A stretch of DNA of 44,225 bases from Psammoneis japonica. Lineage: Eukaryota. The stretch lies in the NCBI GenBank assembly GCA_008632985.1, contig QPGO01000102.1, positions 248,001-292,225 of the forward strand. The letters run 5' to 3'. Each line of letters opens with the position of its first letter. Positions within the stretch are counted from its first letter, which is position 1. The position numbers were made by a program, and so were the translations under genes. Below, piece by piece: positions 687-35,728 of this stretch. The notes under the pieces are model-generated. The model saw only the letters and a list, made by a program, of their open reading frames with translations, searched no databases and was not told where the DNA came from.

Positions 687-3377
687 ATGCCTCCCAAGCA
701 ACACAAGAATCTTGACAAAGGACAAAAGACCATTGGCACCTTTTTCAGTCCCCGTGCCATGGCTAATGCGGCAGCTGGCATCACAAGCAAGTTCAAGACA
801 ACTGCCAGAACTCCTGCCATTGCGCTACCACTGAAACGAAAAGCAGCTGATGCACCGGCCGGAAAAAAGTCCAAAATGCCCAAATATACCGTGCAATCCA
901 CACTGCCAATCGGAAGTTTTTTTCAGAGTCCACTACCCGCTCCTTCTCTCAAGACGCCTTCTGCTATTGTTGCGGACCATCGTCCTACTGGCGACGAATC
1001 ATCTACAGAGAATGCCGACACTACCGGTGCACATGGTGCTACCAAGTCCGATGGCGAGACTGAATCAGCTACCAGCCCATCTGACTCCATTGTTGCTACA
1101 AATGGATTGTCGTTGGACGAAGCTCTAAAAGAAGCAACCGAGAATGGCAGCAACGAGGACGACAAATCGTGTGTTCAGGAAGACAATGAGTCCGGCAGCT
1201 ACACCCATGGCAAAGAGATGCCACACAACGAAAAGGACTTTTACAAGCGATTGATCATGCCAACGTTTAGCTCCAACGTGGCCAGAGAAACTGCCAAGCC
1301 GCATTGTGAAGCCATGGTGGCAATTGCTGAAAAACACCACTTCATTGAACGTCCAGACGGGCATTGTTCGGACCAAATGCTCACCCGAGCTGTCACCAAG
1401 AGCCCTGGTGTTTATGGTGTTCAAAAGGATGCACTGGTAAAGATTGGTGCAAGCAGCAACATGCACAACCGTCGCAACATTTCAAAAGATATCGAGCAAC
1501 ACGACCAATTTCGTGTCATGATCAATCTCAACTGCACCGACGCCGACTTTGATGCAGAGATGCAAGTAGTTTACCGGAACTTTATTGATGCTATTGACAA
1601 AGCTGATGGATTGAGCGAGTTTCAGCATTTTTTTTTCATCGAGCTGTTGCGAGACCGGCATGGGGAAAGCCTGGGACCCAAGAAAATGATTTGGTTATTG
1701 ATGTTGGAATTCGGCCTGCAACAGAGAGAGAATCTTCCGGCGCCGTTTGAGTGTATGATGCACAAGGAATCTGTTGCGCAACTCTATTATGATTTGGCGG
1801 AATCAAGCTGTAACTCGGTCACCAATCATCTTTCCAAGATCATTGGTTGTGCAAGGGAGAATCCGTCGCTTCCATTCGTTTTCGCCATCTCTAGTTGGAA
1901 GACTGGACACGATGGTTTGTCCAGCAAGATCTTGGCCACCCTTTGCATTGTTTTGCACGAGCATCTACAATGTGATGCGCTCCCTTGTCCAGCGGTCCAC
2001 AACGCCGTGACTGCTGAAGAGAAGCACTCGACAGCGTACACGGACCAACAGAAGGCTGCCGCTCGGCTTGTCTTGTGCTGCCACATGCAACACCTGATCG
2101 AGTCACCGTTTGGAGTTGTGTTCCTGGACTCGAACAACTTGATGCTTCGTGATGACCCCAATTTCCATCGGAGCGCAGCTCAGGTTCTTGAGGACCATGG
2201 CTTTCGAGAGGTCGAATGCATCCCATTTGGCGAGATTCGTCTGTTTTTGGATGAGAGCAAGCTTCGCGCAGTTTTCTTGCACAAGCCACTGTGCATTGCG
2301 AGCGACAGTCGGGTGTGTGTTCCAATGATGTTTCGTGTTCGGCATGCATTGTCGCTGTCAGTTCTCTGTGACGTTGCTCGAGTGCTTCGGGGCGACGAAC
2401 TTCTGAACCCAAGTGTCAAGTTTGCAATCCCATCAATGGCATTCTTGGGTTCCAGGTGGGTCGACTCGGTCTTCATCAAAATCTTTTTGTGTGTTCAGCC
2501 ATTAGCAAGGATTGTTTCTCTGGAGCTGAAACGAATGCATTGATTGAGAATGACCTTGCGAAAACGGTTGGAGAAGACGCGCCTGTTTCAAAGATGGTTC
2601 GCGTAGAGTGCTCGGCAAGGTGAGTCCATCTGCTTTGTTCTTTTGCATCATTGCATCCTGCTGACAGCAGCCTCTTCGTGCCATCCTCTGTTGCCAAGTG
2701 GCAAGAAACGTGCAGCAGATGCATTGCGTCCTGTTGATCGAGTCTTGCTGCACCAGTTCCGCTCTGTCATTGGCCATGCTCAGCAAGGTGAGGAAGAGCA
2801 AATGCATCTCAAGATGTGTGAGCTTGCCAAGAAGGGTCCAGGCGGCACAACTGCGGACAAGAAAACGTTCAACTGTAGACTCAAAGAGACCATCATGAAC
2901 CAAGCCATTCCTGGTTCGGCTTTGGCACTGCACCTCATTTCTCTGCATGAGCGACATGCGAACAACACGGGCAATCGTCAATCTGGACCTGGCAAGGGTG
3001 AGAGCAGAGCTGAGGTTGCAGACAACGATGCAATGGTGAAGGATCTTGTGGATGCTTGCCAACCCACTGCAAGTGGCAAGCCTGGACTGGCATTCTGGGC
3101 AAAGGAGGCAAGCAGAGAATGCTTTGTAGAGCCAACGGGGCGCTCGTTGTCGGATTGCGGGGACCATCTTTTTCCTGGCGACAGCTACAATGAAGTTGCA
3201 GGCATGACATGTGAAGGCATTAGAGAGCATTGCAAGTCTTGCCGAACGTTCAAGGGAAACGCCAATTCTGTCACTTTTGAGCGGCATCCTCATTTGGACA
3301 TCAAAAGGGTGAAATGCAAGAGGGACAAGAGACGCAAGGTCAGAGTCACTGTGGGTGAATGCAGGGTGGAGTTGTGA
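687..3377 (+). CDS. Multi-copy gene of unknown function with a GIY-YIG/T5orf172-like motif; 3' half TpA-mutated, possibly pseudogenising
   Basis: 618-aa ORF 687-2543 plus a continuing ORF 2643-3377. Intron-like GTGAGT...CTGACAG at ~2620-2670; exact splice/frameshift structure unresolved. PGVYGV...VKIGASSNMHNR resembles a GIY-YIG/T5orf172 signature (my recognition, not a database hit). Degenerate copies at 7230-9745. Confidence 0.5.
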
Positions 3378-4113
3378 ACGGACATGTGTTGTGTCAATTT
3401 GTGTTCAGTGATTGCCAAAGCTGAGCATGACTTCTTTGATTGGAGCAAAAGTTGCCGTGCTGGGAAAGAAGCCCCATTTGGTTGTTGAGCTTGTGTTTGG
3501 TGATCCTCGTGAATACGAAAAAGGTGCTGCAGCACAGTGGGGTGTTGCAGACTCTGCTGCAGAGAAGTGGGCCATGCTGCAGACATTTGATTGATCCTCG
3601 TGAATGCAGACAAAGCAATTTCATTTGATCTTCATTGTGCCGTGTGCAGCAGTTGGCTGTGCATTTGCTCAGTGGAAAGGATGCATTTCTGATTTGAAGT
3701 TTTGTCCTTTTTTCATGTCTCGCTGTGTGGAGGTGCGCAATCTTTGCTGTCAAAAATTGCGTTTCAAGCAGCTGTGCTTTTGCAAGAAGAAATTGATGCC
3801 TGTGCAGTGCTTTTGCAACTTTCGAAACATCGCCTTGCGACAAACGTGCCGGTGCAGCAATTGCAAACACTCCATCAGAGTCATCGTGACGGGATGCTCA
3901 TTGTTTTCTCAAGCGCTCCAGACACAACACACACATTTTTCACGAAGTGACAATGAAGCTGGAGACGCTGTTTCATCACGGTTGATTCCTCATGCAAGGT
4001 GAGATGCTCGTGAGATCATCCCCATTTGTGCAAATGATGTGTGCGCACAAGCTCTGTCTTGACATGTGCTGACAGTGTGTCTTTCTGCTTTTTTCTCTCC
4101 GCTTGTCTCAGCG

Positions 4114-4290
4114 CAGTTGCTTTTGATTGTGTCTCTCATCTTGTCCAAGGTGGAGTCTTCTCTTGGTTTCCGAAAGCTTCAGATCTGTGGACAAGGGCCA
4201 GAATGACTCCCTCCTTGCCAATCCAGGATTGTCGCCAGCAAGTCCCCAGCTTGTGTGACGAAGTGTCGGCAAGTTGCAACAATTGAAGAC
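4114..4290. repeat. Degenerate dispersed repeat, copy A (partner at 17838-18012)
   Basis: CAGTTGCTTTTGA...TCTTGTCCAAGGTG...GTCTTCT...GATCTG collinear with 17838 onward. Confidence 0.6.
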
Positions 4291-6423
4291 CCATCTCAGA
4301 CAAGTGGAGCACATCAAGACAGCTTCAAGACTCACCAACTGGAGCGCAGCAGCGTGAAATCAAAGTTCTCCAAATCTTTTTCATCTCAAGTGATGGCAAA
4401 GAGGCTGTCAGATGCAAAACACAAACAGCACATGTGCTGCATCAATGGTGATGGGATCTAAAAAGGGAGCTGTTTTGGCATGGGAAAAGGCTGGCAGAGC
4501 AAAGGTCAACATGATGAGCTCAAAGCATGGGCGCCACATGGAAGGTGTCAGAGCAAAGGTTGACAGGATGCGCTCAAAATGCAAGCACTGAATGGAAGGT
4601 GGCAAGGCTGGCAGATCAAGTGGAGAGAGTGGTTTGAAGCACAAGAGCAACTCGCCTGTTGCTGAAAAAAGTGAAAAGAGCAAGAAATGTTGCTCCCAGC
4701 TGGGAGGTCTGCAAAGGAGAAATGTGCTTGTTGTTGTGGTGCTTGGCCCGGTTGTGCATTTTTTTTTGTTGTGCGCATGCATCGCACATCATTGAGCTCT
4801 GTCGTGTGTCGGCAACGGCGCTTTTTGTTTTGCACACGCATGGTCTGGGGCAGTGGAAGGACGCAGAAAACCAAGGCAAGGGAAGCGAGTGAGCCAAAAA
4901 CAAGGAAGGATGGCAGGATTTGGATTGCATCACAAAAAACAGCAGTGGCATCATCATCTCATCAAGCGATGTGCACTGCCTGTCTTCCTTCAGCATTGCG
5001 GTTGCCTGCCCAGCGCACTTGTGCATGTTCTCACCATCAATCTGATTTGTTGAGCCAGTGCTGCAGTGGCCAAGCTGCTGCATGAGCAAGACTCTGAAAT
5101 GACACACCAAGAAGTGACAACCCAATTTTCTCATGGCGCCCATTTTCTTTTTTGTGGATTGTTGTCTAAATGATGATTGCACCACATCTGGCGGGCATTG
5201 AACGCGCGCTCTTTTGAGCTTTTGTGGTCTCTCCAGCAGCACCCCATTTTTTGCCCACATTGTTCTCTTGTGCTCTTTGTTCTTTTCTTCAGATTGAGAC
5301 CATGATGGGAGAAATCATGCATCTTGCCTTGTTGGTGGACAAGGCAAAATGACTGCTGTTGAGTCTCAGCATGCTTTTCACTGTGTGATGGCATTTGGGC
5401 TCTTTGGCTTTGAAGGTCAGTGTTTCACGCAGGCACTGCAGCAACACACAATGGACCATGGCATCATGGCAACAATTCCTTTTGGTGGCTTGACACAGAG
5501 AGACATCCTTTTCTGCCAGAGTTGCCAGTCTGTGGTCATTGGTGAGAACGAGCGGCATTGAAGAGAACAATCTCTCCATCTGCCAGCTGCTGGTGCATTG
5601 TAGATTGCTGTGTTTGTGTTGTTGGCAAGCAGCAGCACACCATTTCACTCTCAGCATCATTTCATCATTTTAGTCACCATTTGTCTCACACTCAGTCCAC
5701 TCTGTTTTTGCTGACAATGTCAGATTGGATGAAATCAACATGCAGAGGGGAGACGTCATGCATCATGCACTGTGCCTCATGGACTGCAAAATGGTTGCCA
5801 TGTCATCATCAGTGACAAGAAAAGCCGCGCTGCACAATGATGTCAACGAGCGGCACTGCTGATCAGAGTGGTGTCTCAATTTCTCATTTCTGCATCTTGC
5901 TGTGCCATCGGATCTGCAGATTGTCATGCACATGGATGAGTCTCAACACAATTCATCACTGTGTTCTTGCCTCACTCTTGGACTCTTCTTCATTCTGAAC
6001 TCATCATGCCAGCATTTGGCAGAATCATCATGATGTGATGAACGCTTTGCAAGTCACAAGTGATGATGTTTCAGAGTTTGCTGTTTGTGCAGCATGGCAT
6101 TGATTTGTTTCCTGTTCAGCATTTTGCAGCAGAAGGACCGGCATGCATCACAAATGAAACACTCAAAAAATGGCATGGCAGCAACACTGCAAATCTTTCT
6201 GTCATGGGCATCTCATGCTGTTTGCTTTGTTTGCATTTTGCACACATGCCGTTGCTTGCGTGCTGGTGTGCTTTGAGACGTGCTGCTTGCTTTGATTGAC
6301 ACATCATTGCTCTTCTTTGAATGTGGTGAGCATGCAACATGTGATGAATCACAAGGATGACAAACAAATTTGTGCATCTGGCCAGCACTCTTTCTTCTCT
6401 TTTTTGCAGACAACCAATGATTC

Positions 6424-6508
6424 TGGTCCAAGTCTGTCCTCCAAGAATGCCACTCTGACTGAAGCGCTGTGTGTGTTGATGGTGGTCCAAGTCTGTCCTC
6501 CAAGAATG
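6424..6508. repeat. 26-bp direct repeat, period 59
   Basis: TGGTCCAAGTCTGTCCTCCAAGAATG at 6424 and 6483. Confidence 0.85.
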
Positions 6509-7229
6509 GTGCTCTGACCAAAGCATTGTGCATGTTGAAGATTTTGACAATCTTTCCCATCAAGGCAGTGTCTGATTTTTGTTTCTTGTGGCACTCGGAT
6601 CTGCGGTGAAAGGAGGGGAATGACTTGTGCCTTGTCAATCTGGGGCTGTCATCATTGAGTCAATGCTTTGTGGTGACAAGTGTTGGCAAGCTGCAGGAAC
6701 TTGAGAAGACCTCAAGACTTGCTGCCTCAAGACACACCTCTGCATGCCCTGCTTCTGTGTGGCAAAGTTTCAGAGATTTGGCACTGTCCGGCTCACACAT
6801 GGGGGGCATTGCTGATTTTGGCATTTGCTTCATTTGCTTGAGCTTTGCATCTCATTTGGCTGCCTCAATGCAGACAACAATGCAGCACCATGTTGTGGGC
6901 AATGAAAGACTGGCCACATGAAGAGAGGTGCTGATGCACACTCTCAAGCTCCCAAAACATTCATTGAGAAAAAGCGCGCAGAGCGCAACTGCGCAACAAG
7001 CAATTGTTCCCAACACACCAACGTGCTTTGTGCAACAAATCATTTTGACCATTGAGATGTTTTGCTGGCCTGCATTCATCAGGAAAAAGGAAGTTGACAA
7101 ACAACCATGTGTGGCTGGTGGCTGGAAAGTGCACAACAAGAGCTTTCAACTGATGCGCACACCTGAAAATCAACCATTTGAGCTGTTTTGAGCTCCATCA
7201 GCACCTTTTCATGTGGCCAGTCTCAAGTC

Positions 7230-7520
7230 AACTTCGTTGATGCTTTTTACAAAGCTGAGGGATTGAGCGAGTTTCAACATTTTTTTTCATTGAGCTGTTG
7301 CTTGCAAGACCACCTTGGGAAAAACCTGGGACCCAAAAAATGACTTGGTTGTTGATGTTGGAATTTGGCCTGCTGCAACAGAGAGAGAATCTTCCTGTGC
7401 CATTTGAGTGCATGATGCACAAGGAATCTGTTGCACAACTGCACTGTGATTTGGCACAATCAAGCTGCAGCTCAGTCATCAACTCATCTTTCTAAGATCA
7501 TCCATCACGCAAATGAGAAC
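7230..7520 (+). pseudogene. Degenerate fragment of the 687 gene (matches ~1580-1860)
   Basis: GGATTGAGCGAGTTTCA...GATGTTGGAATT...CACAAGGAATCTGTTGC shared; translation WLLMLEFGL..QRENLP.PFECMMHKESVAQL. Confidence 0.9.
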
Positions 7521-7549
7521 CTGTTGATTCATTTGTTTTTCCCATCTGC

Positions 7550-7815
7550 CAATTGGGGGCTTTTCCAGAGTCCACTGCCTGCTCCTGCTCTCAAGATGCA
7601 CTCTGTTGTGATTGCCAACAACCCTGCAATTTTGCCATGTTGCTGCCAAGTCCAACAGCAAGACTGAATGAGCTGCCAGCCCATCTGACTCCATTGTTGC
7701 TGCAAACAGATTGTCGTTGGGTGCAGCTCTAAAAAATGCAACCATGAATGGCGGCAATGCCAGCAGTTGTGAGAACAATTGACCACACATTCAAGAAGAC
7801 AATGAGTCTGACAGC
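7550..7815 (+). pseudogene. Degenerate fragment of the 687 gene (matches ~905-1200, with an internal deletion)
   Basis: CAGAGTCCACTgCCtGCTCC and CCAGCCCATCTGACTCCATTGTTGCTgCA; the source copy has TA at these g positions. Confidence 0.9.
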
Positions 7816-7854
7816 AATGTCCACAGCAATGAGAGCCAATGCCAGACCATTTTC

Positions 7855-9745
7855 AAGATGCCACACAACAAAAAGGACTTCTACAAGCAAATGATCATGC
7901 CAACATTCAGCTCCAACATGGCCCAAGAAACTGCCAAGCTGCGCTGCAAAGCCATGGCAGCATGCGCTGAAAAGTGCCATGTCATTGAGCATCCACCAGA
8001 CGGGTGCTGTTTGGACCAAATGTCCACCTGAGCTGTTGCCAAGAGTCCTGGCATTTACGGGGTGCTCAAAAGGATGCACTGGAAAAGGTTGGAGCAAGCA
8101 GCATCATGCACAACTGCTGCAACCTTTCAAAAGATGTCAAGCAATGCAGCCAATTTTGTGTCATGGCCAATCTTGATTGCACCAACACTGACTTTGATGC
8201 AGAGATGCAAGTTGTTCACAGAGACTTTCTTGATGCTCTCTGTGAAGCTGAGGGATTGAGTGATTTTTTTTCATCAAGCTGTTGCAAGACCACCACGGGG
8301 AAAACCTGGGGCCCAAAAAATGCTTTGGTTGTTGATGCTGGAGCTTGGCGTGCAACAGTGAGAGAATTTTCCTGCACCATTTGAGTGCATGATGCACACA
8401 AGGAAACCATTGCACAACTCCTCCATTGCAATTTGGTGGAATCAAACTGCAGCTTGGTCACCAATCATCTTTCCAAGATTGTCAGTTGTGCAAATGAGAA
8501 CCTGTCACTTCCACTCATTTTTGCCATCTCCAGCTAGAAGACCAGAGACATGGTGGCTCACCCAGCAATGTCTTGAGACCCCTTTGCATCATTTTGCATG
8601 AGCATCTGCAATGTGATGCACTCCCTCATCCAGCAGTCCACAGCGCTGCAACTGCCAAAGAGAAGTGCTTGACGGCAGCATGCATGGACCAACAAAAGGC
8701 CACCAATCAGCCAGTCTTGTGCTGCCACATGCAATGCCTGACTGAACCACCCTTTTGGAGCTGCACTCTTGGACTTGAGCAACTTGACATTTGATGACAA
8801 CCCCAATTTCCATCGGGGTGCAGCTCAGGTTCTTGAGAACCATGGCTTTCGACAGGTCAAATGTGTGCCCTGTTTGGCAAGATTCATCTGTTTTTGGATG
8901 CAAGCAAGCTTTGCACAATTTTCTTGCACAAACCACCGTGCATTGCAAGCAACAGTCAGGCATGCATTCCCATGATGTTTTGTGTTCACTGTGTGTTGTC
9001 ACTGTCAGCACTCCACAATGTTGCTTGAGTGTTGGCTGAGCCTTGCTGCACACCAGCTCTGGCCACTCCATCATTTGCCATGCTCAGCAAGGCAAGGAAG
9101 AGCAAACGCATCTTGAGATGCACAAGCTTGCCAAAAAGGGTTGGGCAGCACAGCTGTTGACAAAAAGACTTTCAGCTGCAGACTCAAAGAGATCATCAGC
9201 CAATCCATTCCTGGCCCAGCTTTGGTGCTGCACCTCATTTCTCTTCATGACCAACATGGGAAAAAACAGGGGCAACGACACTCTGGACCTGGCGTGGGTG
9301 AAGCCAGAGAAGAGGTTGCAGAGAATGATTCAAAGGGAAGAATCTTGTGGATGCTTGCCAACCCACTGCAAGTGGCGAGTCTGAGTGCACATTTTGGGCA
9401 AAGGAGACAAGCAACAATGCTTTGCAGAACCAACGGCCCGGAGCACTCATTTTGTCTGATTGCTGGGGCCATCTTTTTCCTGGCAACAGCTGCAATGAAG
9501 TTGCTGGCATGGTGCATGAAGGCATCAAAGAGTGTTCCAAGGCTTGCCAAACATTCAAAGGAAACTTCAATTCCATCACTTGTGATTGGCACCCTCATTT
9601 GCACATCAAGAAGGTGAGGTGCAACATGGGCAAGAGACAGGAGGTCCAAGTCACTGTGGGTGGAATGCACGGGGGAATCATGAGCTGATGTGTGTGTTGT
9701 GTCAATTTGCACTCAGTGATGGCCAAAGCTCAGTGTGACTTCTTT
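7855..9745 (+). pseudogene. Long degenerate copy of the 687 gene (matches ~1215-3437, lacking ~2390-2740)
   Basis: Collinear from GATGCCACACAAC..AAAAGGACTT to GCCAAAGCT...GACTTCTTT, with many frameshifts and TA->TG/CA and CG->TG/CA changes. Confidence 0.9.
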
Positions 9746-9819
9746 GCACCATGGAGTGCCTGTGCAAGCAGCAGAAGGAAGCCACCAGAATGGCAAGGCT
9801 TGTTGGAGCTGGCGCATGT

Positions 9820-10093
9820 TGACAGGATTTGAACAGGATTTGGGTGCGCGCAAAATGTCGCGCGCTGTTCAGTTTGCCGCGCACAGTTTTGTGTGCTTCA
9901 GTTCCGCGCGTTCGCACGATGTAGTTTGCTTTCGAGCCACAAGGCTCACAAGAACAACAACAGTGGCCCGATTGTGCTGACTTGCACATCTTTCGGCTCC
10001 TGCAACGGTCTCTGAGCGGAGACTCATCTGCCATTTAGACAGCAGCAAGGAGTTGTTGTTTGAATTCTTGCCATTTGCCTTCAATTTCTGTCA
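9820..10093 (+). repeat. 5' LTR
   Basis: Direct repeat of 16618-16893; TG...CA termini. Confidence 0.97.
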
Positions 10094-10899
10094 GATTGAC
10101 AGTCTTGCTCATTGTCAACCCATTGAGCAACCGCCATCGTCATCGTTGATTTGCCGACGATGCCACCTCAATTCTGCGTGGACCTCCGTGTGTGTTCTAC
10201 GTGCATCGGCAAGTCTGCGCACATTCAACACCAGGCATCGGCAGGAATTTAACGTCGCCATCAAGTCTCCTCACCGCTGGACATCTGGATTGATTGCACT
10301 GCCTTTTGTCGCTGAAGACATGCGCTCAACGGTCATGTCCAAGTCTGTCCTTGATCCTCATCCCTTGATGCACCCATTCAACGGTTGACGGTCAAGAACC
10401 CTGCATTTTCAAGGATCTTCATCGCTGAAGACACACATGTGCACATGTCTTCACGGCCAAGAACTTGCACCCACTCTTTGGACTCTACAAGCACACCGAG
10501 TCTGTTGTGCCTGATCCACCCCGGACCACTGGTGCTCTGCAGTTCTGCTGGGTCCACGAGGACGACTGTGAGAGCAAGCAGCAGTGATTGCAGCCTGCGT
10601 TGGGGCGAGGGTGTTTTCCCGCGTTTGTTCGTTCGTCCACAGCGCCCAACGCCTGCGTCAACTGGCCAGCCTGATGGGAAATCCAACCGATGTAAAATGA
10701 GAATGGTTCCGGGGTCTTGTCCACCTCCAGTCAGCTTGCCTGCAGGGGTTTGCAACCCGCTGCTCCACTCGCAAGCAACCCAAAGCGCAGCTGGCTGTGG
10801 GCTCGGACGTGCCGGCACAACTCTCAGGGCCGGATGGGAAGTTTGGCACTTGACAACGAACGGGATGACACAGCCCGGCAACTTCTGATTTTAAGACAG

Positions 10900-10960
10900 T
10901 TCAAGATTTCAAGTCAAGTCTGTTTCAAGTCAAGTCTGTTCTCACCCAAGTTTCAAGTCT
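10900..10960 (+). repeat. TTTCAAGTCAAGTC short repeats in the retrotransposon leader
   Basis: TTCAAG/TCAAGTC units repeated several times just upstream of gag. Confidence 0.7.
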
Positions 10961-11011
10961 GCCTTCGCGTCCCAACCAGAATCGCTTGTTCTGACACCGC
11001 TTTTGTCTGCC

Positions 11012-14000
11012 ATGGTTCTCACTTGTCAGCAACAAACTGATGGTTTCGAGCACCTTGTTGGAACTGTGCTTGCCCAAGGTGCTGGAAGCCCTCTTCGTTT
11101 GGCTTTGACCCATGACGGCACGGACTCGTGTCAAGAACTGTTCACGTTCATGCCGTCCCAAATCGACTCGCTTGAGTGCGACAACGGCACTGATGTGATC
11201 CCTTTGCCCCATGGTATAAGAACATGTTGGCAGCTCAGTTGGTCTGCACATTGTCAAAGCACACAAAGGTCTTGATGTTGCCAATGACTCCTCGTTGTTC
11301 ACGCACAAGGAGTTCCTTGCCTGCCGCCTCAGCCCCGACTGCATGTCGTCTGTGTCCGTCGGCAGCTCGCCTCTCGCACCTCCGCACGTCACCAACCCGA
11401 CCAAGGCACATGACCCAGTGCAAGACTTCAAGCGAGGTGTCAAGTGTGACCCCACTGCTTTCACGGCTCTCAAATCGACAAGCAGTGGCACACTTGGCAC
11501 ACCTCACTTGTGGCACAAGCCCGTGCCCAAGACGTCGAGTGCACTCTAGACTCGTCGTACAAACCGACCAGCCCCGAAGACAAACTGCTCTTTGCTGAAC
11601 AGCAAAAGCACATGTTCGCCATCTTCGAACACATCCTTCTCACCGATGAGGGCAAGGCTCTCATTCGCGAAAATGTGGGGTCTTCTGATGCCCAGACCGT
11701 CTGCCGTGCCTTGTCCGAGCATGCGCTCGCCTCCACCCGCGCATCTGTCGAGTCCTCCACCTTGCTCGCGCACCTTGCCACAGCACGTCTTGGTGATGGT
11801 GCTTGGAAAGGTCCGACCCACGGGTTCATCCTTCATTGCAGGATCAGCTGCGCAAGTGTGAGGCACTCATCCCGGCCAGTGACCACTTCTCTGAAGGACA
11901 GAAGCGTGTCATGCTCGAGAATGCCGCACATCCTGTCGAGGAACTCCGTGCCATCAAGAACCAAGCTGATCAGCATCACACGCAGAGTGGCAAGAGCCTC
12001 ATGTGATCAACATTGTGGCTTGCTCCTCTCCGCGGCGGCCCAATGCGACAGTGCGTTTCAACCCAAGACGACACCTCGAGCTCCCCGATGCGCCATGTGC
12101 ACACACGACGTCCACTCCGAGGAACCATCCGATGATGTGTTCCATGACATCGACAGCGACATTGACGTCCTTCAGGCTGACGCTGCCTGCACTGGCGGTC
12201 CCAGCCCCACCGGTGACCAATGGAAACGTCTCCCCCCCGACCACCAACGGATTTGGGATTCGTTGCCCCATTCCTCCAAGGCGATCATCCTTGAGCATTC
12301 TCGGCCGCCTCCCCGCAACCCGCGAGCCAGCAACTGCCATGAGTCCATTGTGGCCAACCTTCACGACCAACGACTTGGGAGTGACGGTGATGTCAACTTG
12401 TCCAACATGACTCCTGCTGACTCTGGTGACCCCGCTCCAAATGTGGGTGCCACTTCAGATGATCCCATCCTGGCGCACCTCACCAAGTGCAAGCCACTGC
12501 CACCCGGTGATCTGCACCGCCTGTTGTCTCCCAACCAAGCCTCCAATGCTGGTCGACCGGGCCCATCCGCCACTCCCTCTGCCTCGCCTGCTCCTGCAGA
12601 TGACACGGAACTTAACGGCCGCACTTGCCACCACGTCAATGACCACAATGTCGTTTGCTCTGCCTCCGCTCATGGCTCCACACGCACTGGTGCTCAGTCA
12701 ATCGTGGAGCCAACGGCGGCATTGCTGGCGATGACGTTCGCGTCATTGCATGCACCTCTTGCCAAGTCGACGTTCAGGGAATTGACAACCTTCAATTGGT
12801 GGACATCCCCATTGTCACCGCTGGTGCCGTCATTGAGACACAGCATGGTCCCGTCATCACCATCCTCCATCAGCACGCATGCACGGGAAAGGGCAAGACC
12901 ATTCATTCCTGTGGCCAGCTCGAATGGTGCAAACATGATGTCAACGATTGCTCCATCAAGGTGCCCAACGGCTTGCAATGTATCGCCACCCCTGATGGCC
13001 ATGTCATCCCAATTGACATCAAGGGCGGCCTGCCTTGTGTTGCCATGCGACCCCACACTGACGCCAAATGGGACACCCTGCCCCATGTCATCCTCACGGT
13101 GATGACACATGGGACCCTTCCGTCCTTGATCACTCCATCACTGATGACGACCAGTGGTGCAACGCGATCTCTGTCCTGCAGGATGATCCCACTGCCAACC
13201 CATTTGATGAATGCGGCAACTGCCGTCACCGTGTCGTTGTCAACAAGGCCATCATGTCCGCCTCCTTCTCTGCCGATCACGTCCGCCCTCAATGACCACC
13301 TCATTCCCAATGATGACATGTTCTGCGAGTGTCATCTGCACGCGATTGACCCCAAGGATGACAACGTTCCAACCCCGGAGTGCACTGTGCAGCCCAAGGA
13401 CCCCCCCTGCGAGTCTCTTCAGCCTTGCTTTGGTTTCCAACCCACCGATGCGGTTCATCGTACTTTCGACTGCACCATGCAGCATGCCCGCATGCCCGCC
13501 GGTGCTCACCTTAAGAAGGCCCACAAATCACCCAACCCTGCCCTTAATGTCCACCGCTGCAACGAGCCCATCGCCACTGACACCGTCCATGCCAACACCC
13601 CGGCCGTCAACTCTGGTTGCACTGGCACCCAATTGTTTGTTGGCACCGAGTCCACCGTCACTGACGTCTGCGGCACCAAAATGGACAAAGAGTTTGTCAA
13701 CACACTCGAGGATCAGATCCGTGAGCGTGGTGCTCCATCCAAACTCATCAGCAACCGTGCTCAAGTTGAGATCAGCAACAAGGTGCTCGGGATCCTACGA
13801 GCCCTCTTTGTCTCCAGCTGGCAAAGTGAGCCTCACCAGCAACACCAAAACTTTGCCGAACGTCGACACCAGACCGTGAAGTGCATGGCGAACACTGTCA
13901 TGGACCGTTTTGGTTCGCCTGCCCACACATGGCTGCTGGCGCTCATGTGCGTGTGCTTCATGCTCAACCATGCAGCGTCCCCACGTCTCCACTGGCACAC

Positions 14001-16610
14001 GCCCCTCGAGACTCTCACTGGCTCCACCCCGGACATCAGCCCATTGCTTCACTTTCACTGGTGGGAACCCGTGTGCTTCCACCTCGATGACTCCGATTGG
14101 CCGTCCAAATCCCGTGAGTTGCGTGGACGCTTTGTTGCCATTGCTGAGCATGTCGGCCACCAGATGACCTTCAAGATTCTCTCTGACGACACTCAGAAGA
14201 CCCTCTGCTGGTCCAACGTACGACCCGCCACCACCGATCCTGCCGTTCGAAACCTGCACCTTGATCCTCTTGACGGGGAGCCACCTGAACCCATCATCAA
14301 ATCTTGCCATGACGACAACCCCGTCGACTCTCCTGATGGGGTGATCAGGACACCCAAGATGCCAGTTTTCGATCCGCAAGACATCATCGGATGCACCTTC
14401 CTCATGCAGCCACAAGAGGACAGACAACGCCACAGAGCTCGCATTGTCAAGGCCATCAAAGAGCACGAATGGAAAGTGAACGGCAACCCCGAGCTCACTG
14501 AGTTCATCTGCTCTGTCAACAACGATGAACACAAGGAAGTCCTGGCCTGCAACAACATCATGAATCACACTGAGCAAGAAGACAAAGACACTGCTGTTTG
14601 GAAATTTTGACGCATTGTGTCACACAAAGGACCTCTGAAGCCTCATGACCCAACCTGGAAAGGCTCAAGCTGCAACACCATGCTTGAATGGGAAAGTGGG
14701 GAGATCACGTCTGAGCCTCTTGCCATCATGCCAAGGACAACCCTGTCACCTGCGCCATCTGTGCACGAGAGAACGGACTTCTTGACACTGATGGCTGGAA
14801 GCGGTTCCGCACCATCGCGAGGCACCAGAAGAAGCCATTCCGCATGGCCAACCAAGCCAAGCTTCGCTCCTTCTGCACTGCACCTTGCTGCAAGTGCAGG
14901 TGCGAAGTTCCCCGGAACTGCAAAAATGCCATGTCACCAGACGAATGCAACGGCAATGGCAAATGGGGAGACGCAACTAATCTGGAGATGGACCAACTCA
15001 ATGAATACGAAGTCTTTCATGACTGCGGGCCCTCCGAGTCTTCCACTCCTCCTGCGGGACACAAGGAGATCCGAGTGCACCTGGTGTGCGACGTGAAACA
15101 TGGCGGCCGCCACAAGGCATGACTCGCAGCCGATGGGCACCTCACGGACGTGCCCATCGACAGTGTCTGCTCCGGAGCAGTCTCCCTCCATGGCCTTCGG
15201 CTGATGATTTTCCTGGCCGAACTCAACGAGTTGGAGACATGGGCCACCGACATTGGCAATGCCCACCTTGAAGCCACCACCAAGGAGAAGCTGCACATCA
15301 CAGCTGGACCCGATTTTGGCAAACTCAAAGGCCACATTCTTGTCATCCACAAGGCCCTGCATGGGCTGCGCAGCTCCGGTCTCCGCTGGCATGAGCGCTT
15401 CGCCGACTGCCTGCGAGCTGAAGGTTTCTTCCCCTGCCGCGCCGAACCCGACATTTGGATGCGCAGGAATGGCGACCACTGCGAATGCATTGCCGTTTGT
15501 GTGGATGACCTCGCCATTGCCATGAAGGATCCTCAATCTTTCGTCGACACTCTCACGGAAAAGTGCAAGTTCAAGCTCAAGGGTGCGGGACCGATTGAGT
15601 TCCACCCAGGCTGCGACTTTTCCTGGGATCCTGATGGCACCTTGTGCCTGTCTCCGCGCAAGTGCATCAAACGTGTGGTCGACAGCTGCACATGACTGTT
15701 TGGGGAGAAACCTGCCACCAACACCCTGTCACCTCTGGAGAAGGGTGGCCACCCCGAACTGGACACTTCCGAACTGCTGGGGCCCGATGGCATTCAACAG
15801 TTCCAGTCTCTTGTTGGTTCACTCCAATGGGCAGTGTCCCTTGGTCAAATTGACGTTGCCACGGCCGTCATGTCACTCTCTGGCTTCCGAGCTGCGCCCC
15901 GTCAAGGCCACTTGGATCGTGCCAAACGCGTCTGTGGGTGCCTCTCCAAGATGCGACACGGCGCTCTCCGCGTTCACATGGAAGAGCCCGACCATTCGGA
16001 TCTCCCTGCTCCGGCCTGTGAATGGATGCATTCCGTGTGCGGCGAGGCAGAAGAGATGATCCCGAAGGACGCTCCACCGCCCCTTGGCAAGTTCGTCACT
16101 GCCACCCACTGCGTCGATGCAAACTTGTGCCATTGCATGCTCACCGGATGCTCTGTCATGGGAATGCTCCACTTCCTCAACAAATTGCCGGCTGATTGGT
16201 TCTCTAAGAAGCAAGCCACCATGGAGACTGCGACCTGCGGGTCTGAATTTGTTGCCACAAGGACTTGTGTCGAGCAGATTGTCGACCTGCGCATCACCCT
16301 GCACTGCCTCGGCGTCCCGATCCGTGGCATCAGTTGCATGTTCGGTGACAACAAGTCGGTTGTAGACAGTGCCACCATCCCACACTCCAAGTTACACAAG
16401 CGACACACCACACTGTCGTTCCACCGTGTGTGTGAGGCAATTGCCTCTGGTTGCCTTGAGCTCCACTTCATCGAAGGATCCCGCAACCCTGCTGACATTC
16501 TCAGCAAGCATTGGGGTTGCTCCCAAGTCTGGGACCTTCTCCGCCCCCTCATGTTCTGGAACTTCATTCCATCCAAAGTCGAATCTGTTTCTGTGACTCC
16601 TCAAGCAAAC
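11012..16610 (+). pseudogene. gag-pol (gag, protease, integrase, RT, RNase H) with frameshifts and stops
   Basis: Starts MVLT at ATG 11012. Protease-like VNRGANGGIAG; integrase IATDT..LISNRAQ..QNFAER; RT ATDIGNA(H)L..KAL(H)GL..(C)VDD at 15498-15509; RNase H (C)VDAN..AT(C)GSEF..FGDN..NPADILSK. In-frame TGA stops at 14608, 15120 and 15693. 3' end approximate. Confidence 0.95.
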
Positions 16611-16617
16611 TGGGGAG

Positions 16618-16893
16618 TGACAGGATTTGAGCAGGATTTGGGTGCGCGCAAAATGTCGCACGCTGTTCAGTTTACTGTGCACAGTTTTGTGTGCTTTAGT
16701 TCCACGCGTTCGCGCGTGATGCAGTTTGCTTTCGAGCCACAAGGCTCACAAGAACAATGACAGCAGCCCGATCACACCGACTTGCACGTCTTTCGGCTCC
16801 TGCAATGGTCTCTGAGCGGAGACTCATCTGCCATTTAGACAGCAGCAAGGAGTTGTTGTTTGAATTCTTGCCATTTGCCTTCAATTTCTGTCA
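16618..16893 (+). repeat. 3' LTR
   Basis: Direct repeat of 9820-10093, preceded by a polypurine tract. Confidence 0.97.
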
Positions 16894-17837
16894 CATGTTG
16901 TGGTGCACGTGCAGCAGCAGAAACAGAGACAAGAAGCCTTGTGGGCTTCTAAATTCTGCAATGATTTTTTTCATTCATTCTTCTTCATTGTCATGCCATG
17001 CACAGCCAGCATTTGGGTGTGCTCTTTGCTCAGCAGAAAGTGTGTGTTTCTGATCACAGCTCAGTTTCAACTTGTCATTGTCTCCTTTTGGGTGGCTGTG
17101 CTTTTGCAAAAAATGATGCACAAGCCGCGCAGCACATGGCAGCGGCAGAAGGATGCAAAATCTAAAAGGAAAAGCCCTTTGGAAACCAAGGGAAGACAGG
17201 GGAAATGCCAAGGGAGGAGGCAGGTTGGCAGGTCAGCAGAAAAAACACCACAAGTGTCATTTTTGGTGCATCACCTGCTGCACCCTTCTCAAGCCTTTTG
17301 GTTGCCCACCGCCCACCCAGAACATTGTTTGTGTTGATTGCGAGATCTGCCAGAGCTGAAATGGCATTGTCAGCACTGTGGTCAAGAGAAAAGAGAGCCC
17401 CACTCTGCATGGCAGTTCTTGTGTGCAGCATCCATTTCTTTCTTGTCGATTGCCATCAAAAAGATGGAATCACATTGCACAAGTCTTGAGTGCATGAATG
17501 ACTTGTTTGTTCACTTCTGCATGCTTGGCTTGTTTGAACTTTGTTGTTGCTCCATTCCTTGTTGCTTTTGCTCTTTGTTCTTTTTTCTGATTGAAGTGGA
17601 GGGGAGACCTTCACACATGTTGCTCCCCATTGACTGACATTGACTGACATGGCAAAATGGCGTTGAGCCTCCAGTGCTGCACATCACAACACACAACTTT
17701 TCTCAGAGCAGCAAGGAAACTTTGAACACTGTGCCATCATGCCTGATTGCCCACACAAGGCAAGACACACTTTTGGGATTGTGTCTGTTGGCATGCATGG
17801 TGCACACATTTCTCTTGTTTCACTTGTGTCACCTCCT

Positions 17838-18012
17838 CAGTTGCTTTTGACTCTGTCTTGTCCAAGGTGATGTCTTCTTTTTTTTTCTGCCAGCCTTTGG
17901 ATCTGCAGAGAACAATGGGAACAACTTCCAGCTTGTCAGCCCAGGGTCATCATCATCAGGTCCACACTTTGTTGGTGAATGATGAGGAGGCACCAACAAG
18001 TTTCACAAGCTG
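17838..18012. repeat. Degenerate dispersed repeat, copy B (partner at 4114-4290)
   Basis: CAGTTGCTTTTGA..TCTTGTCCAAGGTGATGTCTTCT collinear with 4114 onward. Confidence 0.6.
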
Positions 18013-19318
18013 ATTGTTTCTTGTTGTGCTCTGATCAGCAAAGGAGGTCCGGGGCAACTTGCACCTGACAAATTTTGGGTTGTTGTCTTCCGGCCCAGAT
18101 TTTGTGAGGATGAATTGTCAGCTGCTGGCTTGTTGCAGTGGCTGAAGATGCTTGCTGTCATTGGATGGTGAGCAAAGTGGGATGAAGTGAGCTGGCTGGG
18201 GGCGCAGCATCTGAGTGGTGTCACGATGTGAGGCCAGCTTGGCTTTTTTTGAGCAGGAGACAAAGTGGCTCACTTTGGAGATGCTCTCAAAGAGCCCACA
18301 GAGCAGGGCGGGAGCCTGTGGGCTCCTTGCAGCACACCTGCCCACAATTTTGTTGCCACCGGTGCTTGCAAGAGACAAACAGCAGCGAGAGAGAGCCAAG
18401 CTGGCTCACCTTGGCAGCGCTGTCCTGCAAACCTGTGTTTTGTGGCAGCACACTTGATTTTGAGGAACTGTTGAATCTGCAGAATTCTTGCTTCTCACAT
18501 TTTACTCTGCTTGCTCTGTTTTTGCTGGTTTGGACTGCTTTCCTTGTGTGTGTGTCGCACATTTTTTGTGGCACTTTTTTGGCGCCGGCGCAGTTGCTCC
18601 CCTCTCTTTGTGTGGCGATGTTTTTGCTCTCCAGAGCTGCGGTCAGGTGCTGCACGCACAAGTTGTTGATGTCAAGCAGATGTTCACCTCCCAAACAACT
18701 TTTCCAAAGGCTTGTTCCTGCATCAGCATCACAAAACAACGTGTGCTGTTTTCACACTCGTCCTCTTCTCTGAGGCTCCCCATGGTGGGCACCCTGACTG
18801 GAGCTGCCACTTCTCAGAGTTTTCAACAGAGATCCTTGTGATGGTGGCTCTGCACCACAGGCCAAAAATGACTGTCACCCAACTTTCGATTGAGAGGAAA
18901 CAGGCATGGAATTGTGAACATCTTCGAAGATCGAGCGGAGACAGAGGCGGAGAGCGCCGCCACATCGGCACGCACACAGGCAGCCAGATTGAGATCAGCC
19001 AGCCAGGCTGGCCAGGGACACACGGCATTTTGTCGCATTTGGCGACATTTTCTTAAATGAGTTGATGATTTGTCGCGAAAAGACGCGAATTGCGACAAAA
19101 TGTCCGGGTTGGTGATAAACGGGACAGAAACATTGTTCAACCAAGTGACAAAATGATCAATGTCATCATTCACAACCAACCTGAACGTTTGGCGATGTCG
19201 TTTCAACAAGTGGGGCAATCAACAGAATTTGGCGATCGATGTCATCGACGAAAATTCATCCGACAAAATTTGTCGCACACGACAAAATTTGTCGCATCCG
19301 ACAAATTTTGTCGGCGTG

Positions 19319-19418
19319 CGACACGACACGACACGACACGACAAGACACGACACGACAAGACACGACAAGACACGACAAGACACGACAAGACACGACAAG
19401 ACACGACACGACACGACG
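19319..19418. repeat. Pentamer tandem array (ACACG/ACAAG)n
   Basis: Read directly; about 20 units. Confidence 0.95.
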
Positions 19419-19701
19419 ACTCACGAACGAAACACCCATGCCCCCCGCACACGCCAACCGACCGCTAACATCTCCGTTGACACTGCCGGCATGTCTCTTT
19501 TGCACGATGATGCAAAGCGACGATCATGCCGCTCTCGGCGGTCTCCATGCTCTCGTCAATGCAGGGACAACATCGTACGCTTCTACACAGTGCAACGGAA
19601 TGTACCGGCATGTGTTGCTGCACTGTACCTTTCATCACTGCGACTGAGCACTTCTGAATGTTGGGGAGCGTTGCGTCATCGGTGTGTCGCAAACGTCCGT
19701 C

Positions 19702-19797
19702 TGTCGGCGTTTGTCGGCTCTTGTCGGCGTTTGTCGTACGTTGTCGGGGTTTGTCGGGGTTTGTCGGGGCTTGTCGGGGTTTGTCGGGGTTTGTCGG
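19702..19797. repeat. Decamer tandem array (TTGTCGGGGT-like)n
   Basis: Read directly; roughly mirrors the CGACA-rich array in the left arm. Confidence 0.9.
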
Positions 19798-20419
19798 ATA
19801 CGACAAAATTTGTCGTACGTCCGACAAAATTTGTCGTATCCGACAAAATTTGTCGTACGTACGACAAAATCGCCAAAACATTAATTAACAAGTACAGTCT
19901 TCGCCGAAAGTTAAATTCATCATGTGGCACTGTAGTTGATATAACGTCTGTGTTTAGGACACGCCATCGCCAATTAAATGATGATTTTGTCTTATTTATC
20001 GCCAACGTTTGAAATTTGTCTCAAAGGGCGTTTTTCACGACAAATCGTCCAATTCATTTATGGGAATGTCGCAATTGGCGACAAAATGCCGTGTGTCCCA
20101 GGCACGCAGAGTGGTTCGGATGAAGGTCTGCCTGTCGTCAGAATTCCTACACAAAAATACGTAGCAGCAGTACTATGAAATTACGTCACGGATCTTTGAG
20201 GATTGTTCACACTTCAGACGCGCGACGCGACGAAGGAAGGCAATGGTACCAATGGTGCGGAACCGCGTTTTTTCGTTGCAAAGTTATCAGCATCCACAGG
20301 ATAACACTAGTAGGTACAGTGACAGAACACCCCATCTTTATATAGAGTACTGTAAAGGAGTTGTAATCACTTCCGGCAAAGTCAAACAAGCAAGCTTCAG
20401 CTAGCATCGACCTTACCTC

Positions 20420-33637: not shown

Positions 33638-35088
33638 TCAAAAGTCGGCATCAAAGCTTAGCGTATTGCTATTTGTCGCTTCATGTTTTGCATCTGAAGA
33701 AACCGAAGCCATGACACCACTCTTTTGGTATTCTGCTACTCGCTTTTCAAAGAAATTTGTTTTGCCTTCGAGACTAATCATGTCCATCCCTGCGAAAGAG
33801 AGAATGATATAGACGAGAAAAGAAGGGTAAGCGACCACAAAACCAGACGATAACTTGCCCCATGTGTGCACCTCCATCGTTTTTACTTACAGTCAAATGG
33901 ATTCTTACTCCCATACATGGGTCGGTATCCTAAATCTTGCAACAATCGATCCGCCACAAACTCAATGTATTGTCCCATGAGTTTGGCATTCATACCGATT
34001 AGACTGACAGGTAGCGCGTCGCAGATGAATTCCTTCTCCACCTCCACGGCTTGTCCAATGATGCGTTGAATATCCGTCTGAGACAGTTTTCGTTCCAGTT
34101 TGGAGTACAAGTGACAAGCAAAGGAACAATGCAATCCCTCGTCGCGTGATATCAATTCATTGGAAAAGGTCAAGCCGGGCATGAGTCCACGCTTCTTGAG
34201 CCAGAAAATGGCACAAAAGGCACCCGAAAAAAAGATACCCTCCACAGCCGCAAATGCCACGAGGCGTTCTGCAAAGGACGCGTCGGATCCAATGTACCGT
34301 TGCGCCCACTTGGCTTTGCGTTCGACCGATGGAACCGACGTGTGTGCCGAAAAGAGGACACTCCGATCTTTGGGATCGGAAATGTACGTGTCAATCAAGA
34401 GACAATAGGTTTCTTGATGAATGCTCTCCATGGCCATTTGAAATCCGTAAAAGCAACGTGCTTCTGGGACTGTGACTTCCCGACAGAAGCGTTCTGCCAA
34501 GTTTTCCACCACAATTCCGTCTGCGCCTGCAAAGAAAGCCAGAACCATGGAGATAAAGTGACGTTCATTGTCGTTGAGGCCCTCGTGCCAATCCACCAAG
34601 TCGGAGCTTAGATCAATTTCATCTGCTGTCCAGAAGGAAGCCACGTGTTGTTTGTACATATTCCACAAGTCAGGGTGTTCAATTGGAAACAAGGAGAAGC
34701 GTGATCCATCGTCGTCTGTTCTGCAGATGGGTTCTACAAAAGGAGACTCTGATGGATCGTCCTTGATTTGCTGTTGTTGTGATTGATTTAACTCCTCGGA
34801 CTGTGCGCTTCGTGATAGCTTGGGAGTATGAGATGAGACTGATGGACCTCCGCCTCGAAATCGATCTTCTGTCCTTGCAGTCCCTGTATTGAACTTGTCG
34901 ATGTTGTTACTGTTGTTGTCGCTGCTGCAATCACCTCCTCGAATTCTCCTCCATGTATCCGGCATTCTAGTAGATCGGTGTTTTCCCCATGGTGGTCGCG
35001 CCCATTCTCGCGAAGAGTATGATAGTCTTGGTAATTGACTTATTGAAATTGATAAAGATGATACAGAAAACAGAAGAAGCGGTAGCAT
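33638..35088 (-). CDS. RNR2: Ribonucleotide reductase small subunit with N-terminal extension
   Basis: [48 protein letters not shown]; intron 33790-33890; C-terminal exon [18 protein letters not shown]...FDADF. Start may be 35088 or 35136. Confidence 0.96.
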
Positions 35089-35728
35089 GACACGTTTCAG
35101 TGCCAGATGGCAGCTCGCAGAGCCCATGATTCCCATGATGTGTAGGTGAAAGGCCCTTTTGCGAGTTTGATTTTATAAAAACAGAGAGGAAGACCAGTCA
35201 CTCTCCAAACATGTAATTGTGAATGCCCCTCCCTTTGCTGGCGTCGAAAAGGCAAACGCCCAGTCTCCTGAGTATAAGTAAACAGTAGGTTTTGATGGGT
35301 CGGAAGTGAGCGATAGCGACGCCGTCATCAAGATGCGGGGATGCGCTGGGGTGCGGTGGCACTTTTTATCAGGTTATCTTTTGTGGTCGAACGGAAATCT
35401 AAGCACATACAAATCTCGTAGAAAATGTACTACGAAATTTGTAGCTCAACGGATACACGTGTTGCTTTGATTGGACGCCAGCTCACCGGCGTCTACGATT
35501 ATTCTGGTATTCGTTCTACGTCGCATGTCCTGATCGGCGCTCAGACAAGCAGACAAGAATCGCCGCGCGCCAAAAAGATCTCGTGGTGAAACAAGCGGTT
35601 ATGCCGGTCTCATTTTTTCAACATTTGCGAAGTACCTCAACCTTATTCTCTCCGTCTCGTTTGCTTGCAAATAAATTTCCTGAATACGCCTTTGCGTCAG
35701 CTCTGTTATATTCTACTGTATACGCATA

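Follow-up and report, generated by a model that had tools for sequence, protein, structure and literature searches.

The window analyzed here is a 44,225-bp stretch of the Psammoneis japonica assembly GCA_008632985.1 (contig QPGO01000102.1, positions 248,001 to 292,225 of the forward strand), and all coordinates below are counted from its first nucleotide. It contains a 17-kb domain, which includes a decayed Ty1/copia retrotransposon, that is nearly free of the dinucleotide TpA and enriched in TpG and CpA. We interpret this domain as a silenced repeat island in a diatom nuclear genome in which a mutator, acting in place and at the level of DNA, turned the A:T pair of TpA into G:C, and we assign this interpretation a probability of roughly 0.72. 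To judge by its signature, the domain appears to represent a second, distant lineage for a process that has been reported once, in the chlorarachniophyte Bigelowiella natans (Mettrop et al., bioRxiv 10.64898/2026.01.13.699255, 2026-04-14).

A domain depleted in TpA

Positions 2038 to 19054 (17,017 bp) contain 46 to 47 TA dinucleotides, which corresponds to an observed/expected ratio (o/e) of 0.05, compared with 0.58 in the rest of the window. At the latter ratio, about 580 TA are expected in the domain (Poisson P = 3e-183), and every one of 200 mononucleotide shuffles of the domain contained at least 925. Counted per kb, TA number 0 to 7 in each of the 17 windows between 2001 and 19000 (o/e 0.00 to 0.13), whereas full 1-kb windows outside the domain, except 39001-40000, hold 22 to 67 each (o/e 0.34 to 0.81). 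A first-pass annotation of this DNA had estimated about 50 TA across 2100-19500, with an excess of TG and CA and flanks with normal TA. The exact number in that interval is 49, of 1056 in the whole window, and the description is accurate.

The domain also contains 601 CG (o/e 0.53), 1787 TG (1.68), and 1779 CA (1.68); in the rest of the window the o/e values for these dinucleotides are 0.98, 1.20, and 1.14, respectively. The deficits of TA (~534) and CG (~510) together match the excess of TG plus CA (~1083). Thus, the excess has two sources: about half of it results from ordinary CpG decay, and the other source is TpA loss. The CG o/e falls to 0.13 to 0.4 in parts of the domain, and in the copia interior it is 0.64 to 0.79 while TA o/e is 0.02 to 0.13.

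The left edge of the domain is sharp. It lies at ~2037-2040, within the open reading frame (ORF) 687-2543 and within a duplicated gene-like unit that starts at or before position 1032, and TA density changes there from 3 to 7 per 200 bp to 0 to 2. The right edge lies at 19470-19800, within an element bounded by terminal inverted repeats (TIRs). The left 460 bp of this element (19011-19470) contain 3 TA, and its right 633 bp (19471-20103) contain 22.

The TA dinucleotides that survive in the domain are followed by T in only 2 of 46 cases and preceded by A in 3 of 46, compared with 281 and 238 of ~1005 in the rest of the window. This pattern may mean either that ATA and TAT are the best substrates or that TA forms anew in other contexts.

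TAA and TAG are scarce in the domain, at 1.8 and 1.7 per kb, whereas the remainder of the window has 15.8 and 18.3 per kb. This explains the many long, empty ORFs of the domain. Two plus-strand examples, 11450-13102 and 12643-14610, extend for 550 and 655 codons from stop to stop and lack a family match over most of their extent. Probably only the missing TAA and TAG keep them open, and such spurious ORFs are a trap for gene callers in TA-free DNA.

Direction and context of the change in copia Pol

The copia element spans positions 9820 to 16896. It consists of a pair of long terminal repeats (LTRs) around a pol region with an RVT_2-type reverse transcriptase (RT; Pfam E-value 7.6e-16), which places it in the Ty1/copia family. 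Six homologs searched by tblastn map to 13810-16640 in two frames. The Pol sequence has 1785 homologs at E ≤ 1e-10, and the 120 listed among them are 52% to 67% identical, with PF07727 recorded for them. RVT_2 is the only Pfam match among 28 + 40 ORFs, read from stop to stop, in the domain and its flanks, and the copia element yielded no integrase or gag match in Pfam.

Pol from 14730 to 16640 was aligned with the 120 homologs, which yielded 387 conserved columns. The N-terminal segment (13810-14736) aligned poorly (identity at 63 of 177 conserved columns) and was excluded from the context counts. Because the first two letters of a codon are set by the amino acid, conserved columns permit a clean test of sequence context. 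At the 22 conserved Tyr columns, the window encodes Cys 17 times (TGY), His three times (CAY), and Tyr and Phe once each. The catalytic motif of the RT is among the altered sites, for it reads CVDD in the window and YVDD in the homolog consensus.

Where the preceding base is T (Tyr), 17 of 22 sites carry a second-position A-to-G change. The counts are 0 of 25 for a preceding C (His, Gln), 0 of 31 for a preceding A (Asn, Lys), and 3 of 45 for a preceding G (Asp, Glu). Two Lys-to-Arg replacements are CGY codons and hence not single steps. The difference between the T context and all others (17/22 versus 3/101) has a Fisher P value of 9e-14. First-position T-to-C changes occur at 3 of 22 TpA sites versus 1 of 50 sites elsewhere (P = 0.08). 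Across all 39 Tyr positions of one homolog (P0135), the codons in the window are TGY at 24, CAY at 7, TAC at 1, TTC at 6, and GTG at 1. TA in copia Pol was lost by mutation, through an A:T to G:C change that is specific to TpA and that affected both strands. The polarity proposed in the first-pass annotation, and its observation that both products occur on the same strand, are thus supported by the substitution spectrum of the window's Pol against its homologs, which has the TpA-specific A-to-G excess; both products are found as well in the paralog pair described below. CpG-type changes (to His, Cys, Trp, or Gln) are found at 7 of 26 conserved Arg columns.

These contexts constrain the type of process. 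Polymerase eta (Pol eta) has the mutational motif WA, with A-to-G changes at both TpA and ApA. Synthesis of this type had been suggested, and it is disfavored by the 0 of 31 ApA sites changed compared with 17 of 22 TpA sites. A wider group of non-deaminase processes acting on DNA in this chromatin would include error-prone repair (Pol eta-like or linked to mismatch repair) and mutagenic repair of a lesion or nick at TpA, such as a TA photoproduct or the product of a TA-cutting nuclease. The letters record an outcome and not a chemistry, and regional action fits repair that depends on chromatin. However, the change is a nearly pure transition (Phe at 1 of 22 Tyr columns versus Cys or His at 20 of 22), and a rate ~240-fold over background, as estimated below, is large for passive repair errors. 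We consider this group of processes unlikely.

Selection, or GC-biased gene conversion among repeats, could in principle combine with CpG decay to give such a composition with no targeted mutator. Gene conversion does occur among repeats, and its direction is AT to GC. However, biased conversion is not dinucleotide-specific, and A-to-G changes are found at only 3 of 101 sites outside TpA; moreover, single-copy DNA is also affected. Selection for TA avoidance is implausible in decayed, noncoding sequences whose catalytic Tyr has been destroyed. This explanation is very improbable.

Loss of TpA after insertion

Over 276 aligned columns, 16 substitution events and one 2-nt indel separate the two LTRs of the copia element. 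Four of the events are TG/CA doubles, three are TA versus TG or CA, eight are CG versus TG or CA, and one is of another type. Outside pyrimidine-purine (YpR) steps, there is one difference in 132 sites. Because LTRs are identical at integration and these now differ almost only at YpR steps, TA was lost in place after insertion. TG/CA doubles are expected when an ancestral TA is resolved separately in each LTR. Flux between TG and CA could also create them, but no such flux is seen at conserved Pol codons, where His is kept in 17 of 18 cases (with none changed to Cys), Cys in 4 of 4, and Trp in 10 of 10.

A two-lineage estimate gives 11 to 14 ancestral TA per LTR, or 4% to 5% of dinucleotides, compared with 3.9% in the flanks. 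The estimated loss per LTR is 0.84 to 0.88 for TA and 0.27 for CpG. Per site, TA loss is ~240 to 280 times that of other sites, with a 95% interval of ~43 to 11,000 that is wide because the background rests on one event, and it is ~6 to 7 times CpG decay.

The LTRs are also informative about RNA-level editing, in which adenosines of retrotransposon transcripts would be converted to inosine by an ADAR- or ADAT-like enzyme with a 5'-U preference, and the changes fixed by reverse transcription before integration. Copia Tyr codons do have a sense-strand bias of the kind that such editing would produce (17 TGY versus 3 CAY in conserved columns, 24 versus 7 at the P0135 positions, and 7 versus 0 in GTAC), and ADARs favor U immediately 5' of the edited A, as noted in the B. 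natans paper (10.64898/2026.01.13.699255). However, the four TG/CA doubles and the three differences between TA and non-TA postdate integration; the diverged paralog (copy B, below) and the single-copy flanks, which are not retroelements, are equally TA-free; three to seven Tyr codons carry T-to-C changes, which are beyond the reach of plus-strand RNA editing; and the edges of the domain do not track element ends. At most, RNA editing could have contributed to the copia signal, and as the explanation of the domain it is quite improbable.

Hyperediting by ADAR or ADAT enzymes would be restricted to the retroelement, the same in both LTRs, and confined to one strand. Here, unique and paralog DNA is depleted, and seven LTR differences are linked to TA. 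DNA-level action, as previously proposed, therefore agrees both with the divergence of the LTRs at YpR steps after insertion and with the equal depletion of single-copy, non-retroelement DNA.

TpA loss and CpG decay in a duplicated gene-like unit

A gene-like unit of an unnamed family occurs in the window as copies A, B, and C (Table 1). Between positions 1000 and 2037, copy A contains 24 TA, of which copy B retains 3, has TG in place of 9, and has CA in place of 6 (21 of 24 are changed). The same interval of copy A contains 52 CG, of which copy B retains 4, with 26 replaced by CA and 20 by TG. Outside YpR steps, transitions separate the two copies at only 6% to 12% of sites. Farther downstream in copy A (2038-3400), only 4 to 5 TA are left, yet 46 CG are kept. 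Thus, TA loss and CpG decay are separable.

The copy A family has 106 distant homologs at E ≤ 1e-3, the best with 41% identity and many with lengths of 800 to 1100 amino acids. Pfam searches with ORF 687-2543 and 12 homologs detected no family and only one sub-threshold chance match, and an Atlas search with the same ORF gave no usable match. A Tyr-column comparison within the family has no power, as only six columns contain at least 40% Tyr, two of them in the TA-free part, and identity is only 24% to 30%. In a cell-wise count, which at this identity speaks neither for nor against the loss of TpA by mutation, Tyr occupies 3 of 288 cells in the TA-free part versus 164 of 502 in the 5' part; Cys plus His occupy 36 of 288 versus 71 of 502, which is no excess, and Phe is more frequent (84 versus 49). 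The reading frame of copy A resumes at 2607-3377 beyond two in-frame stops, and copy B lacks 2385-2731. An intron is possible in copy A, as is a decayed 3' third.

Relatives of the copia element

We compared 80 related copia loci from metagenomes. Their TA o/e is 0.33 to 1.06, mostly 0.6 to 0.9, and the median share of Cys plus His at Tyr positions is 2.6%, although mutated copies may be under-sampled, since a motif with Tyr or Phe was a requirement of one of the two patterns searched. Among the 120 listed protein matches, the median content is 4.6% Tyr and 1.1% Cys, compared with 0% Tyr and 4.95% Cys in the window stretch. TA poverty is not a trait of this copia lineage.

Three of the 120 proteins have partial Tyr-to-Cys/His replacement. 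P0199 has Tyr at 4, Cys at 7, and His at 5 of 22 columns; P0130 has 12, 6, and 4 of 25; and P0174 has 10, 1, and 6 of 20. A 2561-bp locus (L019) that is probably the contig of P0174 has a TA o/e of 0.33, with Cys at 3 and His at 6 of 33 positions. These sequences come from other public data sets, and their pattern hints that the process may operate in further hosts.

Support from sequencing reads

The window was compared with k-mer unitigs of sequencing run X1, with which it has 0.72 of sampled words in common and whose library type is not on record. Two further runs of the same sample (X2 and X3) share next to no words with the stretch, and no RNA run is listed among those that contain it. 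Run X1 probably derives from the source sample of the assembly, and its support is accordingly independent of the assembler but not of the culture. Unitigs of depth ~60 match 7406-9371 with one other letter and one gap in 1967 bp, and 16865-19038 with six other letters and one gap in 2173 bp. They have four other letters in 5497-6170 and one in 6945-7432.

Miscalling of modified heterochromatin bases as TG or CA, in sequencing or assembly, was raised in the first-pass annotation. CpG and TpA are both palindromic, so strand-specific miscalls could yield either product, and the sequence is known from one sample. However, long unitigs at depth ~60 require accurate reads, and therefore long-read miscalls of modified bases are very unlikely. 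Across ~6 kb of unique TA-free sequence, these unitigs deviate from the window by at most 17 letters, albeit probably from the same sample and thus not from an independent culture. In addition, the changes sit amid real divergence (indels, transversions, a frameshift, and an LTR pair of 92% identity), and the three proteins from other data sets have the same partial Tyr-to-Cys/His pattern. An artefact is largely refuted and has only a very small probability.

Copy number was estimated from summed k-mer contig depth in X1, relative to ~60 for unique DNA. Region 9432-17399 is very high-copy, and 1464-7439 is present in ~2 to 3 copies. The copia region has a summed depth of 39,000 to 107,000, equivalent to roughly 700 to 1800 copies at 90% likeness or more. 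Unitigs of this high-copy family break at variable sites, and the other-letter comparison of copies comprises 40 of 469 rows. By contrast, 7440-9431 and 17400-18727 are single-copy and yet equally TA-free. The earlier description of the domain as repeats is therefore only partly right: it applies to the first two regions and not to the last two. Nor do the data bear out a trigger that senses repeats by homology, since unique DNA is affected and the duplicated unit has escaped most change in its 5' half (1032-2037).

Comparison with known systems

The first-pass annotation knew of no named system of this kind, but the same signature has been measured in B. natans. In that report (10.64898/2026.01.13.699255), TpA-to-TpG/CpA hypermutation was found in mutation-accumulation lines and was proposed to be a genome defense. 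Of 302 nuclear point mutations, 231 fell in integrated giant-virus and virophage regions, and 230 of these 231 were A>G or T>C, all of them at TpA according to the authors. Rates in these inserts were ~6e-7, raised more than 1000-fold, and only some lines were affected. The B. natans genome contains 124 clusters of 1-kb windows with a TpA deficit and an excess of CpA plus TpG, and its low-TpA coding sequences are enriched in RT, endonuclease-RT, and DDE domains. The authors propose an ADAT2-like DNA adenine deaminase, with Bn78255 as a candidate. The paper makes no mention of diatoms, CpG, or retrotransposons, and our full-text literature searches found no report of a TpA hypermutation signature in diatoms.

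[quoted passage not shown] When this definition is applied to the diatom domain, all 17 windows pass the TpA threshold (with Rho_TpA ≤ 0.13) and 13 of 17 pass both thresholds, including a run of eight (3001-10000), so the domain qualifies as a cluster. The two cases share the change of TpA to TpG or CpA, almost exclusively A:T to G:C and with other A and T spared, in discrete domains. Both also have TpA-depleted, CpA+TpG-enriched clusters tied to RT or transposase domains and a rate that exceeds the background by orders of magnitude. In the window, confinement to a discrete domain of mobile or foreign DNA is apparent from the edges and from the copia, TIR, and paralog DNA, and the far raised rate comes from the LTR estimate, whose order of magnitude is similar to that of the increase in B. 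natans.

The two cases differ in several respects. The host here is a diatom, which is a stramenopile, and B. natans belongs to Rhizaria. The targets here are copia, the duplicated gene-like unit, and unique DNA next to them, in contrast to the giant-virus or virophage inserts of B. natans. TA o/e is 0.05 here, which is near saturation, versus 0.45 for the B. natans insert derived from a nucleocytoplasmic large DNA virus. The diatom domain additionally has superimposed CpG decay and a sense-strand bias, and it is known from fixed differences alone. New relative to B. natans are therefore the transposon targets, the near-saturation, a TpA loss that is separable from CpG decay and faster than it, the positional edges, and the strand bias.

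Fungal repeat-induced point mutation (RIP) resembles the present case in that transitions accumulate domain by domain, kill repeated or foreign DNA, leak slightly to neighbors, and leave a dinucleotide signature. However, RIP runs in the opposite direction, turning CpA into TpA and thus making TA, whereas here TA is removed and CpA and TpG are made. Also, RIP is triggered by repeat homology, whereas the domain includes affected single-copy DNA and leaves one half of a duplicated unit mostly untouched. The C:G to T:A changes, TpA excess, and CpA/TpG deficit of RIP are absent from the domain, where TA o/e is 0.05 and both TG and CA are at 1.68.

Deamination of 5-methylcytosine (5mC) in methylated transposons is the source of about half of the TG/CA excess. 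Unlike this process, the change studied here removes TpA, also where CpG is near normal (2038-3400), and it is ~6 times faster in the LTRs. APOBEC3 and ADAR hyperediting are similar in that they are deaminase-type processes in which context-dependent, clustered transitions inactivate retroelements. However, the substrates of these enzymes are cDNA or RNA, and only the element itself is marked, whereas in the domain the marks extend to unique and non-retroelement DNA and the LTRs diverged after integration. APOBEC enzymes yield C-to-T, unlike the A:T to G:C change in the domain.

Possible mechanism and implications

If a mutator acted on TpA in this domain, a hit on the top-strand A would produce TpG, and a hit on the bottom-strand A would produce CpA. 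TpA loss has run nearly to saturation, and the decay of methylated CpG to TpG and CpA is superimposed on it, slower and uneven. Adenine in the DNA may be deaminated enzymatically to hypoxanthine, presumably by a deaminase, TadA/ADAT-like or of another type, that prefers a 5' T. Chromatin state or recognition of foreign DNA, rather than homology, would direct the process to its targets. Because the edges ignore element borders and half of the duplicated unit is spared, we infer positional, chromatin-like targeting with some spread and not RIP-like homology sensing. The sense-strand bias in copia may reflect single-stranded exposure of the non-template strand.

Several observations weigh against this interpretation. 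All evidence in the window comes from fixed differences and not from new mutations. The sole run that contains this sequence is probably the source sample. The bias toward sense-strand A-to-G in copia Tyr codons is significant (17:3, P = 0.003; 24:7, P = 0.003) and is found also in the palindromic context GTAC (7:0, P = 0.016). Raw counts have no gross asymmetry (256 TG and 271 CA in copia pol, with a median TG share of 0.48 in relatives), and the strand bias is consequently a feature of the Tyr codons only. This bias fits exposure of the non-template strand, but it fits equally some RNA editing before reverse transcription.

The duplicated regions also provide contrary evidence. Between copies A and B there are 25 TG/CA doubles (16 + 9) in 1000-2037, where A keeps TA, and copy A must therefore be partly mutated too. 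Of the 14 places listed in 1301-2000, 6 read TA in contigs of other copies and TG or CA in the window. This supports a partial mutation of copy A but does not prove it, as paralog contigs back it at only these six positions. When 3176-5206 is compared with its two to three near-identical copies, none of 18 listed differences involves TA and 12 involve CpG. Thus, this segment was duplicated after TA loss while CpG decay continued, and in-place dating is impossible there.

A broader proposal is possible, although we hold it only tentatively and at somewhat less than even odds. Diatoms and chlorarachniophytes, both members of the stramenopile-alveolate-Rhizaria (SAR) group, might share a defense in which a DNA adenine deaminase with a strict 5'-T requirement is directed by chromatin or foreignness. 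In diatoms, it would act on transposons and the DNA around them until no TpA is left, outrun 5mC decay several-fold, spread a few hundred bases past element borders, and prefer the non-template strand. If true, this would be a natural A-to-G DNA editor programmable by chromatin and a mirror image of fungal RIP.

The diatom case would mean that the process is confined neither to one lineage nor to giant-virus inserts, and that it can inactivate retrotransposons, as in the conversion of the catalytic YVDD to CVDD. With two distant hosts, a comparative search for the responsible gene becomes possible, and diatoms include genetically tractable species. A natural mutator that makes A-to-G changes in a double-strand context would be of interest to the genome-defense and base-editing fields.

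Other features of the window

The coordinates of all features are collected in Table 1. Within the domain, 3439-7229 and 16897-19010 are unassigned DNA.

Table 1. Annotated features of the window, with strand and supporting observations
Feature	Position	Strand	Basis or remarks
Copy A, gene-like unit of unnamed family	687..3438	+	ORF 687-2543, same frame on to ~3377; left edge of domain inside at ~2037
TpA-depleted, TpG/CpA-enriched domain (17 kb)	2038..19054	.	dinucleotide counts
Copy C, partial	7230..7547	+	82% identity to 1578-1890
Copy B, diverged TA-free, CpG-poor paralog of A	7636..9746	+	76-79% identity to 1032-2384 and 2732-3438
5' LTR of copia element	9820..10096	+	92% identical to 16618-16896
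Decayed Ty1/copia pol	13810..16640	+	RT at 15123-15695; one frameshift near 14730; in-frame TGA stops
3' LTR of copia element	16618..16896	+	LTR pair alignment
TIR-bounded element, internal CGACA / TTTGTCG arrays	19011..20103	.	54-nt inverted repeat, 83% complementary
Ribonucleotide reductase (RNR) small chain	33883..35136	-	protein family match
PP5-type phosphatase with TPR repeats	37041..38862	-	protein family match
Second TA-free, CpG-poor island of internal direct repeats	39138..40200	.	dinucleotide counts and self-alignment

Protein family matches in the flanks identify eukaryotic genes. The named best matches of the RNR protein are all from diatoms (Nitzschia, Cylindrotheca, Pseudo-nitzschia, and others; 63% to 91% identity among 120 listed matches), which places the stretch in a diatom nuclear genome. 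The PP5-type phosphatase lies on two overlapping ORFs (37041-38057 and 37975-38862), which points to a short intron or a frameshift. Other flanking genes encode two zf-MYND proteins, a piece with a CPSF_A domain, and a DUF5880 protein.

The second island has no TA in 1063 bp, with o/e values of 0.29 for CG, 1.61 for TG, and 1.39 for CA. It lies between the PP5 gene and the next ORFs and is C/T-rich. Its repeat units are ~220 and ~100 nt long and 74% to 87% alike, and two of the repeats (39403-39624 and 40061-40280) are 87% identical.

The TIR element is ~1.1 kb long and contains CGACA-type arrays of 5- and 10-mers (19299-19437), complementary TTGTCGG-type 10-mers (19692-19801), and TTTGTCG...CGACAAA palindromes. 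Its summed depth of 2668 to 3555, compared with ~60 for unique DNA, suggests ~45 to 60 copies, and it contains no ORF with a Pfam match. Finally, ORF 26686-27849 includes three to four tandem 54-nt units of 18 codons each (27529-27708), which match the PT disordered repeat weakly and below threshold.

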